A DNA stretch of 64,000 bases from a phage: NCBI GenBank assembly GCA_014437165.1, contig GCA_014437165.1_4090.3; one strand, 5' to 3'. Under the pieces are notes generated by a model. That model was not told where the DNA came from. It did no database searches and was given only the letters and a program-made list of their open reading frames with translations. The first letter of the stretch is position 1. Every line of letters starts with the position of its first letter. A program made the position numbers and the translations under genes. Shown here one piece after another: positions 31,036 to 47,684 of the stretch.

Positions 31036-31223
31036 GTATCTATTGAAACGAACAATTTGGCCCACGGGGTGCGGGAGTGTATCTATAGAAAAAGTAGTTT
31101 AGTACAGTTACAATTGTGCACCCGGTGGGTTAGCTGTTGTCATGGGGTATATTATACCAGTACTGGATAGTGCTGTCAATACCTTTTTACTATTCAGTAC
31201 TTAAAACTATTTTCAAAAAGTAC

Positions 31224-31368
31224 TTGCAAACTATGTTTAAAGGCGTATAATGTTTTACATCAGGACGGGGAATGAATAAGTAACTCCCCGTTAAGTAGCC
31301 CAGGAGTAAGGCACACGAAAAACTCCCCTGATAAAATAGTTTGACAATTGTTTTTAAAAGCGTATAAT
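31224..31368 (+). promoter_or_regulatory. tandem-promoter cassette with conserved ~90-nt structured leader
   Basis: P1 TTGCAA 31224-31229/TATAAT 31246-31251; hairpin ACGGGGA..TCCCCGT; P2 TTGACA 31341-31346/TATAAT 31363-31368; near-identical copy at 41447-41590. Confidence 0.6.
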
Positions 31369-31400
31369 ACTTACATCAACTACTGAATGAGGGTTACAAA

Positions 31401-32012
31401 ATGAAAACTATCACTACTACTACTTATGTTATGGCTTTTTCTGAATTGAACGCAGAACAACAAACGTCAGCTATCGAACTGGTTCGGGATCGGGAACGTT
31501 CAAGCGGTGATGATTTCTTTTCTGAGTCAGTGATCGAGTACTATAAAGAAACAGTACTACCAGAATATGGAATTGATGACGCTGATTTGCAATTCAGTGG
31601 TTTTTGGTCGCAGGGTGACGGTGCATCAATCAGTACTGACCACGTTGACGCAGTGAAGTTTTTACGCAAGGTAAGAGCATTAACTAAGTATCGCTCAATC
31701 CGTCACCTGCTGAATGAAGATGATTTGGCGATGAGTGTAAAGCGTTCTCACTCCCACTACTCGCATGAGAACACTGTAAGCGGGTACATTGAATCGGCTT
31801 ACACTGATTTAACCGCAAAACAAGAAACGTTAGTTAATGAGCTTGAGGAACTACTCACTGATACTATTCGTGAATTATCCCGCAAGTTGTACCGTGATTT
31901 AGAGAATGCATATGAGGATCAATTCACTACTGAAAACATTACGGCACTGATTGAGGGTAACGAATATCAATTCAATGTTATTGATGGCGTAGTAGAATCA
32001 ATCGAATATTAA
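31401..32012 (+). CDS. hypothetical protein
   Basis: RBS GAGGG; 203 aa. Confidence 0.65.
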   Translation: MKTITTTTYVMAFSELNAEQQTSAIELVRDRERSSGDDFFSESVIEYYKETVLPEYGIDDADLQFSGFWSQGDGASISTDHVDAVKFLRKVRALTKYRSIRHLLNEDDLAMSVKRSHSHYSHENTVSGYIESAYTDLTAKQETLVNELEELLTDTIRELSRKLYRDLENAYEDQFTTENITALIEGNEYQFNVIDGVVESIEY

Positions 32013-32024
32013 TTCAAAAAGTAC

Positions 32025-32084
32025 TTGCAAACTAAGTTTAAAAGCGTATAATACTTTATATCGAGGCGGGGAATGGTTCCCCGC
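32025..32084 (+). promoter_or_regulatory. promoter + leader-hairpin cassette
   Basis: TTGCAA 32025-32030, 16 nt, TATAAT 32047-32052; hairpin GCGGGGAA-TGG-TTCCCCGC 32066-32084. Confidence 0.7.
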
Positions 32085-32105
32085 TCACACTAAAAGGGCA
32101 ACAAA

Positions 32106-32372
32106 ATGAAAACTTTAAATATCACAACTGCACATCAATTGGTTCGGGATGCAATGGATCATGTGCAAGATTTCTTCCCTGATGTAAGTGTCGTAACTTA
32201 TGAAAAAGGTACTTGGACTTATTCAACAATTAATGGTTATGAGCCTGATTTTGATGACCTGGAAGAAATGGAATTTAATTTTGATCTGCTGAATGATGCC
32301 GCCCGTGAAGTTGAAAACGATGTTCAATACATTGATGGAGTAGTCGCACCTGATGCAGTAAAAGGATTATAA
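32106..32372 (+). CDS. hypothetical protein
   Basis: RBS AAGGG; 88 aa, acidic. Confidence 0.65.
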   Translation: MKTLNITTAHQLVRDAMDHVQDFFPDVSVVTYEKGTWTYSTINGYEPDFDDLEEMEFNFDLLNDAAREVENDVQYIDGVVAPDAVKGL

Positions 32373-32386
32373 AATTTAAAAAGTAC

Positions 32387-32448
32387 TTGCATTGTAGTTA
32401 GATTAACGTATAATACTTTATATCGAGGCGGGAGAATGGTTCTCCCGC
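32387..32448 (+). promoter_or_regulatory. promoter + leader-hairpin cassette
   Basis: TTGCAT 32387-32392, 16 nt, TATAAT 32409-32414; hairpin GCGGGAGAA-TGG-TTCTCCCGC 32428-32448. Confidence 0.7.
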
Positions 32449-32470
32449 TCAATCAAACGAGGATTTAAAA

Positions 32471-32710
32471 ATGGCTAGTACTAAATCTTACAACGGTCAC
32501 AAAAACAAAACTCATTGGAATGTTTCATTGTGGATTAATAACGATGAGTCATTGTACCGGATCGCTCAACGTTGGATCGCACAAAGTAGTACTAAAGATT
32601 ATGCTGCTGAATGTATGTACCGCGAATTAAAAGCAAACGGTACTACTACAACGCCGGACGGATTCAAGTATAGCACTACTGCGATCCGTGCTGCAATGGT
32701 TGGAATGTAA
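32471..32710 (+). CDS. hypothetical protein; paralog of 30071-30310
   Basis: RBS GAGGA; shares most positions with 30071 product. Confidence 0.7.
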   Translation: MASTKSYNGHKNKTHWNVSLWINNDESLYRIAQRWIAQSSTKDYAAECMYRELKANGTTTTPDGFKYSTTAIRAAMVGM

Positions 32711-32729
32711 CATTCAGTACTGAATCAAT

Positions 32730-32752
32730 GGCGGGGATTGGTTCCCGCCTTT
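32730..32752 (+). terminator. hairpin with short U-tract (weak terminator/attenuator)
   Basis: GGCGGGGA-TTGG-TTCCCGCC followed by TTT. Confidence 0.4.
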
Positions 32753-32767
32753 ACTGAGGATTATCTA

Positions 32768-33052
32768 ATGAGCAAAGTAATTAACTATACAGTACTAAGT
32801 AAATCATTATCTATCAGCCATTGCACCGATGGTTATTGGCTTTATGATGAAACACGCGGCATGAATTTAGCTATGCAGGAGAAAACTACAGATGCGGCAT
32901 ATCTTAAAGCACTGGAATACTACCAGAAGCGATTAAAGGAAGTAGAAAACGATTATAATAACCTGAAAGCGAAAGTAGATCATTTCGTCGGTCAATTCGT
33001 TGACGATGACGAGGACGGGCACTACTGCGACCGTTGCGGATCTTACAGTTAA
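32768..33052 (+). CDS. hypothetical protein
   Basis: ATG 32768 (MSKVINY..) after CTGAGGATTATCTA; C-terminal CDRCG. Confidence 0.55.
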   Translation: MSKVINYTVLSKSLSISHCTDGYWLYDETRGMNLAMQEKTTDAAYLKALEYYQKRLKEVENDYNNLKAKVDHFVGQFVDDDEDGHYCDRCGSYS

Positions 33053-33069
33053 GTACTGAGGATTATCTA

Positions 33070-46261: not shown

Positions 46262-46322
46262 TTGCATTGTAGTTAGATTAACGTATAATGTTTTACATAG
46301 AGCGGGGGAATAGTTCTCCCGC
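46262..46322 (+). promoter_or_regulatory. promoter + leader-hairpin cassette
   Basis: TTGCAT 46262-46267, 16 nt, TATAAT 46284-46289; hairpin GCGGGGGAA-TAG-TTCTCCCGC 46302-46322. Confidence 0.7.
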
Positions 46323-46340
46323 CAGTCCAGGAGATACACC

Positions 46341-46604
46341 ATGAACACTATCGAAATCACTATCAATGCACACGTATACGACAACGTAGTACTGCAAACT
46401 ACTATGACCGCTAATGATACCAGTACTTTGCGGAATACCGTTGTAAGTGCTGTATGTGCTGCAATCGGTGATGTAGCCCTGGAAAATGCAGAACACATCA
46501 ACAACGGTTTCACTATGTGCAAACGTGATAACGCAAAACATATCATCTTAGAAGGTTACGGCGGTGTAGAATATAACCTTTATATGAAAAAAGTACTTGC
46601 ATAA
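46341..46604 (+). CDS. hypothetical protein
   Basis: RBS CAGGAGA; 87 aa. Confidence 0.65.
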   Translation: MNTIEITINAHVYDNVVLQTTMTANDTSTLRNTVVSAVCAAIGDVALENAEHINNGFTMCKRDNAKHIILEGYGGVEYNLYMKKVLA

Positions 46605-46653
46605 TAACTAAAACAAAGTATAATGTTTTGCATAGGGGGAGATATCCTCCCCC
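46597..46653 (+). promoter_or_regulatory. promoter + leader-hairpin cassette
   Basis: TTGCAT 46597-46602 (overlaps previous stop), 16 nt, TATAAT 46619-46624; hairpin GGGGGAGA-TAT-CCTCCCCC 46635-46653. Confidence 0.65.
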
Positions 46654-46671
46654 ACTAAAAGGAGTAATAAA

Positions 46672-46896
46672 ATGGCTAACTTTGATGAACTAATGCGGGA
46701 AGTAGCTAACCTGGCAGAAGAGAAGAAATCATTCGATTCTATCTATAACACCGCTCATCGTGATTCAGTACTGGCATGTACTCAGGATCAAAAAGATGAA
46801 CTGATCGCCACCTACCATGAAGCGTGGCAGTACTACCGCCAATGGGAGAAAGAAGAAAGTGAGTCTACCATTGACGGCCTCAATAATCTAATCTAA
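46672..46896 (+). CDS. hypothetical protein
   Basis: RBS AAGGAG; 74 aa. Confidence 0.65.
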   Translation: MANFDELMREVANLAEEKKSFDSIYNTAHRDSVLACTQDQKDELIATYHEAWQYYRQWEKEESESTIDGLNNLI

Positions 46897-46907
46897 AAGT
46901 TTTATTT

Positions 46908-46946
46908 CAGTACTATTGACATAGCTTGATAGTACTGATGTAATAA
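46908..46946 (+). promoter_or_regulatory. promoter embedded in a palindromic operator-like site
   Basis: CAGTACTAT 46908-46916 / ATAGTACTG 46929-46937; TTGACA 46916-46921; -10-like TGTAAT. Confidence 0.55.
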
Positions 46947-46972
46947 CTTTACTAACTACAAGGGGAAACATA

Positions 46973-47230
46973 ATGGAACAGTTCACACAATATCGGGTAA
47001 ATCCTCAAGCTATGGCCTACGTAGAAGACCATAAAACGTTACCAGTACTAACACCAATTAAAGGCCATATCTATCGTGCAATGTCATGGAATACGGCCCA
47101 GGATGGATATACTACCGCTGGCGTGGGTATGTATTGCGGGAATGGTGAATGGTTTGATCCAAATAATCCGGTAGCCATTGACAGTACTGAAAAAATGAAA
47201 TGGGCCGACTACATCGAAGATATTTCATAA
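46973..47230 (+). CDS. hypothetical protein
   Basis: RBS AAGGGGAAA; 85 aa. Confidence 0.6.
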   Translation: MEQFTQYRVNPQAMAYVEDHKTLPVLTPIKGHIYRAMSWNTAQDGYTTAGVGMYCGNGEWFDPNNPVAIDSTEKMKWADYIEDIS

Positions 47231-47236
47231 AACTAT

Positions 47237-47297
47237 TTGACAGTACTAACCAGTAATGTATAATGTTTTACATAGAGCGGGGGAATAGTTCTCCCGC
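47237..47297 (+). promoter_or_regulatory. promoter + leader-hairpin cassette
   Basis: TTGACA 47237-47242, 16 nt, TATAAT 47259-47264; hairpin GCGGGGGAA-TAG-TTCTCCCGC 47277-47297. Confidence 0.7.
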
Positions 47298-47319
47298 CAA
47301 TAGTTTGGAGTAAAACATT

Positions 47320-47520
47320 ATGTCTATCGCTATCGCCCTGGTTGAAGTACTGAAAGAAGCTAAAGCCAACCAGATCGACGTAAAGATCCAGGAACTACAA
47401 AACGGCTTAATCGGCTGTACTTGTACCGCTGGTGGAGCGGCAGACTATCGAGAACACGAATCACTCGAATCACTGGTTCGGTATCTTACCATGATCGTTG
47501 ATGATTGGAGAATCATCTAA
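47320..47520 (+). CDS. hypothetical protein
   Basis: RBS TGGAG; 66 aa. Confidence 0.6.
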   Translation: MSIAIALVEVLKEAKANQIDVKIQELQNGLIGCTCTAGGAADYREHESLESLVRYLTMIVDDWRII

Positions 47521-47538
47521 CAAAAAAGAATAAAAAAA

Positions 47539-47563
47539 GGAGTTGACTTCGGTCCGCTCCTTT
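47539..47563 (+). terminator. terminator-like hairpin / degenerate PeSL-like cassette
   Basis: GGAGTTGAC-TTCG-GTCCGCTCC (one mismatch) + TTT. Confidence 0.5.
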
Positions 47564-47684
47564 AGTACTATATACGCATAGACAAAAACTAGCCCACAGG
47601 GTGCATAGGTGTATCTAAAATATATAGTTAATAACGGTGAGTAACTATCTGCTGGTGGAACTAAAACTATTAATAAAAAAAGTA

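Follow-up and report, generated by a model that had tools for sequence, protein, structure and literature searches.

What is the role of a short sequence that recurs, almost unchanged, between the genes of a large phage? The question is raised by a 64-kb stretch of phage DNA (positions 1-64000 in contig GCA_014437165.1_4090.3; hereafter the window), in which an earlier note, made from the letters alone, had pointed to a dispersed intergenic motif and offered two kinds of reading, protein-binding sites in the DNA or small structured RNA motifs. We find that the motif is the core of an element of ~50 bases that lies immediately downstream of sigma-70 promoters, is confined to the terminal repeat of the genome and is conserved across a clade of jumbo phages. 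Very probably, it is a transcribed, structured RNA element that forms a new family. Over long stretches the window is ~91-97% identical to the ~350-kb Asteriusvirus jumbo phages 121Q, ph0011 and G17; judged by its sequence, the source is an Asteriusvirus (121Q/PBECO4-like) jumbo phage of Escherichia coli.

Copies, promoters and distribution

Set in one orientation, the copies follow the consensus (CTA)RCCCAYNGGGTGC-N5-TGTATCTA, and the window holds ten full copies, six on the plus and four on the minus strand, together with a decayed one (Table 1; copies are named below by the lower coordinate of their core). The repetition is real: GCCCACRGGGTGC, with two mismatches or fewer, occurs at 10 sites in the window against 0.41 expected and a maximum of 3 in 100 shuffles. 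A covariance model seeded with 14 units recovers exactly the same 10 copies from the window and nothing else at E<1. The positions reported originally are good to within ~10 nt, with 39381 to be corrected to 39371 and 41381 to 41377. The partial copy seen near 29178 is likewise present, as GGTGCGGGAGTGTATCC; a weak promoter-like site lies upstream of it at 29113, and the covariance model misses it. What had been taken for a separate second family, TGCACCC(G/A)GTGGG(T/C)TAG, turns out to be the first one in reverse complement: a scan with this pattern lands on the sites of the first family, on the opposite strand, and the GTAGTAATTAT tail corresponds, in reverse complement, to the -10 region of the promoter (CATAATTACTAC).

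Every copy in the window lies downstream of a co-oriented sigma-70 promoter of the TTGACx-17-TATAAT type. The description of copies placed directly after a promoter is thus true of all 10; that they usually follow a terminator is true of only 4 of the 10, and the spacing of ~75 bp ahead of a further -35 element turns out to be 60-93 bp, or there is no next promoter at all. The coupling is equally clear in the wider set of units from related phages (below), where, for 67 of 72 distinct units, a promoter with no more than 3 mismatches over 12 positions ends 19-28 nt before the core in the same orientation; the same criterion picks out 5% of random positions in the same loci. With +1 set at the A of the conserved CAT, the core begins at ~+14 to +23, and the element is predicted to be transcribed from ~+14 to +50. 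The distance between promoter and core falls into two classes, ~20 nt or 24-28 nt, because some units lack the insert that forms a 5' hairpin.

The conserved module is 42-53 nt long with stems of 3-6 bp, and its core, RCCC-AYN-GGGUGC, is near-invariant: C2, C3, G9, G10 and U11 are kept in at least 85 of 86 units. Ahead of the core, the 5' segments span 13-23 nt, with differences of 5-7 nt. Similarity among copies is confined to the promoter and ~50 nt. Descent of the copies from one long duplicated segment, the outcome that the earlier note had named as fatal to its proposal, was rejected, since similarity stops at the promoter and at ~+50 and other genera keep the motif amid unrelated flanks; conservation of the motif is independent. 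A small protein-coding open reading frame (ORF) was also rejected, as no start codon follows the predicted +1 and the length differences are not multiples of three. No transfer RNA (tRNA) or transfer-messenger RNA was found. Rfam 15 gave no match in the window at gathering thresholds, and at E up to 5 it gave three chance-level matches in the segment from 27.5 to 49.5 kb, none of them on a motif copy.

A search of related genomes recovered the element in other jumbo phages. Two pattern scans of IMG/VR returned matches only in jumbo contigs of 345-378 kb or in fragments of such contigs. The carriers comprise RaK2, GAP32, CBB, 121Q, fHe-Yen9-04, Serratia BF and five further contigs, and the covariance model yields 86 distinct units from 23 sources. 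All the hosts are Enterobacterales. The model has no match in the 39-kb repeat of PA5oct, a distant relative. Among bacteria and archaea (one genome per species, 185,579 scanned) we obtained 31 scattered single matches, some of them clustered in Sulfurovum, none from Enterobacterales; a copy of a host sequence was therefore rejected, 31 matches being about the chance level (estimate ~17). In the literature, searched for the motif sequence and for transcriptome work on these phages, we found no description of the element.

The position of the copies in the phage genome is equally restricted. The record of vB_Ec-M-J annotates a direct terminal repeat of 21,525 bp, and in fEgEco12 a 20,993-bp repeat has been confirmed by PhageTerm and restriction mapping (PMC13070987). 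Once the vB_Ec-M-J boundaries are transferred to the window, all copies (29,012-47,604) fall inside the repeat, and in the whole 121Q contig every pattern match lies within the repeat-homologous region. The repeat is crowded with near-consensus sigma-70 promoters ahead of small genes, in agreement with the RpoD-like promoters with UP-like elements described in the early region and terminal repeat of CBB (PMC5259590). Most promoters in the repeat lack the motif.

Folding and covariation of the RNA

In most units a first hairpin (hairpin 1) can form between +1 and the core. Its loop is A-rich and 6-8 nt long, and its stem sequence is specific to the unit (TGAG/CTCA, GACG/CGTC, AGTC/GACT, CGC/GCG, GGC/GCC, CCAC/GTGG, AGCA/TGCT, AGACA/TGTCT, ACCG/CGGT). 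In ~62-68 sequences, each of the three inner pairs is broken at most once and is realised by 3-5 standard pair types. The alignment has 141 cells in which both partners have changed (shuffles, 48 +/- 5.5), and the paired share of 93.7% drops to 17-55% once the partners are slid. A spacer of 3-4 nt, usually CUA, joins hairpin 1 to the core; the insert itself is absent from some units.

The core allows two further pairings. In hairpin A, R1CCC4 pairs with G8GGU11 across a loop of 3-4 nt; 96.8% of cells are paired, R1 is A or G opposite U, and a change of C4 to U is coupled to a change of G8 to A in three units of at least two lineages. In hairpin B, GGGUG pairs instead with Y21-R-Y-Y-Y25 of the TGTATCT segment. 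Among 86 sequences its five inner pairs are broken 0, 1, 6, 0 and 1 times. Variation in its 3' strand consists almost entirely of transitions (U/C opposite G, A/G opposite U), and the rare changes of G8, G10 and G12 to A sit opposite U. Since both hairpins use GGGU they are mutually exclusive, and the variation across units preserves both of them.

On the opposite strand the G.U pairs would become A.C mismatches, and this sequence pattern points to selection acting on the RNA rather than on the DNA. A double-stranded DNA site is disfavoured by the G.U-dependent patterns combined with the strand-specific co-orientation with promoters. Of the readings first proposed, the small structured RNA is thus the one that gains support, from the co-oriented promoters 19-28 nt upstream, the compensatory changes in the 5' hairpin and the G.U-tolerant variation. 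Two other structural candidates were discarded. A long-range pairing of AUAGA at the 5' end with UCUAU is available, by inspection, in some units only and is not general; a loop of the CsrA type would require GGA, which occurs in the N5 loop of just 4 of the 10 window copies.

Genomic contexts in the terminal repeat

Units occur in three contexts. Stand-alone units consist of a promoter, the motif, an AU-rich linker that almost always holds AGUACUG, and a canonical hairpin with U-tract 20-25 nt past the motif. They usually oppose the flanking genes, with which they have a bidirectional terminator in common. At least 11 are known, Unit 5 in the window and at least 10 in RaK2, fHe-Yen9-04, CBB, GAP32 and the contigs L004, L015 and L017. 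In convergent pairs the cores are 65-88 bp apart; the window has two such pairs, 31060/31118 and the decayed 29176 with 29227, and others are found in CBB, L004, L017 and fHe-Yen9-04, the last with two. Each transcript of a convergent pair would hold the complement of the other and would fold into a long hairpin. Finally, sense-oriented units stand at the heads of early operons (37694, 39371, 41377, 44845, 47592), followed 60-93 bp on by a second promoter with an ordinary hairpin leader and then by the gene. The combination of own promoter and own Rho-independent terminator for an RNA of 50-300 nt, which an Hfq-type trans-acting small RNA would have, is predicted in the 11 or more stand-alone units and absent from the five sense-oriented units of the window.

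The relation of units to genes is not fixed. A family of 113-amino-acid (aa) proteins, encoded in the window at 37852-38193, has a unit upstream in sense orientation in the window, RaK2 and fHe-Yen9-04, and a downstream, convergent one in L015 and L017. The DksA-like gene has a unit upstream in the window, and a downstream and convergent one in L004 and L017. Units that change sides and direction from genus to genus are more in keeping with an autonomous module than with a leader bound to particular genes. The 113-aa protein itself (plus strand) is acidic, with a net charge of -19, and belongs to phrog_18238, a group of unassigned function; with orthologues in L003, L005, L015 and L017, a unit lies within ~300 nt in 5 of 5 lineages, on varying side and strand. 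The proximity could reflect a functional link, or chance in a dense region.

Table 1. Units of the element in the window and the terminal repeat that contains them.
Feature	Coordinates	Strand	Promoter	5' segment	Core	Score (bits)	Further parts and place
Terminal repeat	~27,924-49,020						direct terminal repeat (early region); vB_Ec-M-J boundaries mapped by homology
Unit 1	28997..29079	-	-35 TTGCTT 29079-29074, -10 TATAAT 29057-29052	hairpin AGTC/GACT	29024-29012	65.2	TGTATCTA; non-coding left end of the repeat, directed at the genome end
Decayed copy	~29176-29193	+				 	GGTGCGGGAGTGTATCC; without RCCCAYN (first half of core)
Unit 2	29212..29294	-	-35 TTGACT at 29294, -10 TATAAT ending 29267	hairpin CGC/GCG	29239-29227, variant CCCCAGGGGGTGC	54.7	3' strand TACGCCC; convergent partner of the decayed copy
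Unit 3	31007..31087	+	TTGACT-17-CATAAT	hairpin ATTG/CAAT	31060-31072		convergent with Unit 4
Unit 4	31103..31179	-	TTGACA-17-TATAAT (consensus)	short	31130-31118		convergent with Unit 3; 70 bp between the core starts
Unit 5	33585..33715	-	TTGACA-17-CATAAT	hairpin GAC/GTC	33659-33647	65.3	stand-alone; AU-rich linker with AGTACTG, then hairpin 33608-33585 in common with convergent plus-strand gene; predicted RNA ~95 nt, from 33,680 to ~33,585
Unit 6	37633..37721	+	terminator hairpin 37633-37660 with -35 TTGACT 37640 in its 5' arm; -10 TATTAT	hairpin TGAG/CTCA	37694-37706		then second promoter 37773, gene 37852
Unit 7	39315..39398	+	TTGACA-17-CATAAT	hairpin GACG/CGTC	39371-39383		upstream of operon of 48-aa ORF, DksA-like and GNAT genes
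Unit 8	41321..41404	+	terminator-promoter composite 41321-41348	short, without hairpin insert	41377-41389		
Unit 9	44784..44872	+	terminator-promoter composite 44784-44811	hairpin TGAG/CTCA	44845-44857		
Unit 10	47543..47619	+	hairpin-embedded, TTGACT 47543-47548 / TACTAT 47566-47571	short	47592-47604		final unit ahead of the right boundary of the repeat

Four of the sense-oriented copies (37694, 41377, 44845, 47592) follow a composite of terminator hairpin and promoter, in which the hairpin has a UUCG or UCCG loop, its 5' arm bears the -35 element and its U-tract runs into the -10 element. Composites of this kind, AAAGGGaTTGACTyCGGTCAGtCCCTTTtGcTAT(A/T)AT, are found both inside and outside the repeat (428, 4923, 6205, 7619, 37633-37668, 41321-41356, 44784-44819 and 47536-47571). 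Ordinary early leaders accompany ~17 promoters between 29991 and 47300 (e.g., 29991, 30666, 32025, 33282, 35703, 37175, 38209, 42099, 45219, 47237) and are built on one plan: TATAAT, nnTTTACATCAAG, a G-rich hairpin GGGGAGAAnnGGTTCTCCCC, a ribosome-binding site and ATG. The stems of these hairpins covary (GGTGGGG/CCCCAC, GCGGGG/CCCCGC).

A second non-coding family, on the plus strand at ~31258-31340, 34581-34690 and 41483-41562, has promoters of its own at 31224, 34547 and ~41447. It reads ACATCAGGACGGGGAA..GTAAC(T)CCCCGTTAAGTAGYCCAGGAGTAAGRCA..GAAAAMCTCCCCTGATAAAATAG, holds no ORF, has complementary ends (AUCAGG/CCUGAU) and lies directly downstream of motif units in 2 of 3 copies. The palindrome AGTACT, part of the linker of stand-alone units, occurs 257 times in the whole window (1-64000) against 20.7 +/- 4.8 expected, a ~12-fold excess, in coding and non-coding DNA and on both sides of the repeat. 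It is most regular in promoter spacers (CAGTACTGTATAAT), just upstream of the -35 element (AAAGTACTTGCAA) and 10-25 nt past the motif, and is also present in the flanks of RaK2, GAP32 and CBB units. This excess suggests a genome-wide binding or modification site.

Further observations concern the ends of the repeat. The assembly crosses the left boundary (27924) without a break, so that, compared with the linear genome as packaged, it is collapsed or permuted. Within a 1.7-kb non-coding stretch, ~770-900 bp from the left end of the repeat, the plus strand of 28698-28826 carries nine YAGAYGGCT-like 9-mers, all on one strand and spaced by multiples of 8 bp (8, 16, 24). Leftward promoters at 28954, ~29079 and 29294 aim at this iteron-like array, which could be an origin or a terminase site. 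Just past the right boundary, 49041-49130 is extremely AT-rich, with promoter-like sites on both strands. The repeat is preceded by a block of small ORFs, and directly to the left of this block lies an array of at least six paralogous genes (~12000-24000, minus strand, and L001 1-7508), which the 121Q annotation describes as RCC1-like "DNA condensation" proteins.

Possible roles and known systems

Taken together, these features suggest a family of small early RNAs or RNA leaders, so far undescribed, that a group of jumbo phages has in common. For its action we favour, tentatively and at slightly less than an even chance, small immediate-early RNAs that would work in trans via a partner, through the near-invariant core. 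Once the DNA enters the cell, host sigma-70 polymerase would make short transcripts from the terminal repeat, with the element as their 5' module. Each RNA would start at the A of CAT and carry the optional variable hairpin, the spacer of 3-4 nt and RCCC-AYN-GGGUGC, with GGGUG able to pair with either the upstream RCCC (hairpin A) or the downstream YRUCY of ..UGUAUCU.. (hairpin B). Some units would be whole small-RNA genes of promoter, ~95-110 nt and terminator, some of them paired convergently, and others would head early operons. The ~10 sibling RNAs per repeat (~20 per packaged genome) might offer a sequence-specific docking site to the putative partner and titrate or redirect it during host takeover, and in sense-oriented copies the module might additionally tag the 5' end of operon transcripts. 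A protein is the more likely partner than a base-pairing target, because intramolecular pairing is preserved, the loop accepts any 3-4 nt sequence, and the invariant stem bases imply sequence-specific recognition of the folded element. A bolder and unlikely proposal is that ~20 copies of a bistable RNA module, firing within seconds of entry, reprogramme the host polymerase without a protein, or act as a multi-copy decoy for a host RNA-binding or defence protein. If true, the former would be a second, unrelated put-like system and the latter a new class of RNA-based host-takeover or anti-defence device.

Several points weigh against trans-acting RNAs of this kind. Hairpins A and B cannot coexist, their mean predicted energies are close (-3.8 vs -3.3 kcal/mol), and minimum-free-energy folding of single sequences does not converge on one structure. 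The pair counts come from alignments that had been fitted to the model; for hairpins A and B the outcome is the same when the core region is aligned without gaps and independently of structure. No RNA-binding domain is recognisable among the proteins encoded in the repeat. Pfam and PHROGs searches of the neighbouring genes yielded no partner: beyond a DksA-like zinc finger, a GNAT and a weak match to a kinase, the genes are of unknown function. Nor does the core show excess complementarity to the ribosomal RNAs (rRNAs) or the tRNAs of E. coli rrnH (-22.6 and -20.4 vs -20.7 +/- 1.7 kcal/mol for shuffled queries), and an antisense to rRNA or tRNA was rejected as a candidate on the same evidence. 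The five sense-oriented window copies, which have no evident terminator of their own and lead into a second promoter and gene, may act in cis, and recognition of the DNA could likewise account for an invariant core of 12 nt.

The main rival, which we consider unlikely, is a cis-acting modifier like put of HK022 or like nut, in which the nascent motif, folded just beyond the exit channel, would make its own polymerase resist pausing and termination; transcripts from motif promoters would then pass terminators that stop those from ordinary internal promoters. put is likewise a cis-encoded structured RNA just downstream of early sigma-70 promoters, on leftward and rightward transcripts, and serves an enterobacterial polymerase. 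The motif stands where putL does, right after strong early promoters at ~+14 to +50 (put features in PMC9378689), four copies lie exactly at early operon junctions after a terminator, and near-invariance fits a conserved host machine, the hosts being all Enterobacterales. However, at least 11 units have a canonical terminator within ~25 nt and oppose the neighbouring genes, where read-through would yield antisense RNA only, so that for self-terminated units this context appears to disfavour factor-independent suppression of termination or pausing, and convergent pairs would drive modified polymerases into each other. put is also larger and built differently: each of its 2 copies spans ~70 nt, forms two long stem-loops with a triplex and is never followed by a terminator of its own, whereas the motif has ~50 nt, hairpins of 3-6 bp and 10 copies, many of them self-terminated or convergent. 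Run with filters off over 24.0-40.75 kb of HK022, the early region, the covariance model reaches no more than 7.5 bits (E>1), with no similarity to putL or putR. The nut site of lambda and P22 (boxA plus boxB, served by N protein) resembles the motif in having a small hairpin with a purine- or A-rich loop beside a conserved linear sequence, near early promoters in both directions. In the motif the order is reversed, with the hairpin first, the hairpin is optional, and there are 10 copies rather than 2; no boxA-like sequence (CGCUCUUA or GCUCUUUAACAA) was found in 57 unit sequences, and no N-like, arginine-rich N-terminus among 49 repeat ORFs.

The remaining alternatives, a cis stability signal, a DNA operator and a hitch-hiking cassette, explain less of the evidence. 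More doubtful than a put-like modifier is a cis-acting element of RNA processing or stability, in which a structure or ribonuclease site at the 5' end would determine how long early operon transcripts last or where their mature 5' end lies. The ordinary early leaders of the region also begin with a 5' hairpin (GGGGAGAA..TTCTCCCC), so that 5' structures are evidently selected here, and formation of hairpin A leaves the AU-rich UGUAUCUAU tail single-stranded; nevertheless, there is no mRNA to protect in the stand-alone units and convergent pairs, only the latter offer hairpins long enough for RNase III, and a stabiliser needs structure rather than a 12-nt invariant sequence. We regard as improbable a phage or host protein that recognises the core in double-stranded DNA, or in the non-template strand at a paused polymerase in the manner of RfaH at ops, and blocks or modifies transcription from these promoters. 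Near-invariance of the core is typical of a protein site, and in every case the core is placed within the early transcribed region of its promoter, whereas the spacing to the promoter varies by 5-9 bp, owing to the hairpin insert, the core is not palindromic, covariation of the 5' hairpin is unexplained by double-stranded DNA binding, and both the R1-U11 pairing and the 3' strand of hairpin B obey G.U rules; to block the promoter of a mere 100-nt RNA also seems pointless. The DNA-site readings originally suggested, a middle-mode activator box or a nuclease or packaging site, find no support either. The element is at -30 of no promoter and is unlike the MotA box of T4 ((a/t)(a/t)TGCTT(t/c)A at -30, without a -35 box), no such sequence being present and the motif lying downstream of complete -35/-10 promoters; no copy falls within 1 kb of the repeat boundaries (~27,924 and 49,020). 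Least probable of all, and already disfavoured, is a promoter cassette spread by recombination, with the downstream sequence hitch-hiking without a function of its own. The promoters of the repeat are indeed numerous and clearly paralogous, but most lack the motif, which is kept across genera despite diverged flanks and promoter spacers, with compensatory changes, and the decayed copy at 29176 shows what lost constraint looks like.

Phages of the RaK2/121Q group are candidates for therapy, and their 21-kb repeats are annotated merely as strings of hypothetical proteins. The repeat also carries a conserved, multi-copy, promoter-coupled RNA element under clear purifying selection, common to at least five genera that infect Escherichia, Klebsiella, Cronobacter, Pectobacterium, Serratia and Yersinia. 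It offers a small, defined object for the study of the first minutes of host takeover, and a covariance-model seed for annotating the family.

Among systems already known, enterobacterial small RNAs with siblings (OmrA/B, Qrr) and phage antisense RNAs such as OOP of lambda come close to the stand-alone units, which likewise have a promoter of their own, an AU-rich linker after a conserved 5' region, and several near-identical copies; OOP and cII, in addition, parallel the Rho-independent terminator held in common with a convergent gene. The motif differs from the sibling RNAs in that its conserved region is structured rather than an open seed, and half of the window copies are terminator-less and upstream of genes. 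The early RNase III sites of T7 (R0.3 to R1.3) are another dispersed, conserved intergenic RNA structure with ~10 repeats in an early region read by host polymerase. They are, however, double-stranded stems of ~20 bp between the genes of one polycistronic transcript, whereas each motif copy has its own promoter and stems of 3-6 bp, long duplexes being possible only for the transcripts of convergent pairs. Closest in setting are ncRNA001 and ncRNA002 of the Pseudomonas phage PA5oct, two highly expressed non-coding RNAs that also lie in the terminal repeat of a jumbo phage (PMC7318152); they differ from the motif in length (236-451 nt) and are unrelated to it in sequence.

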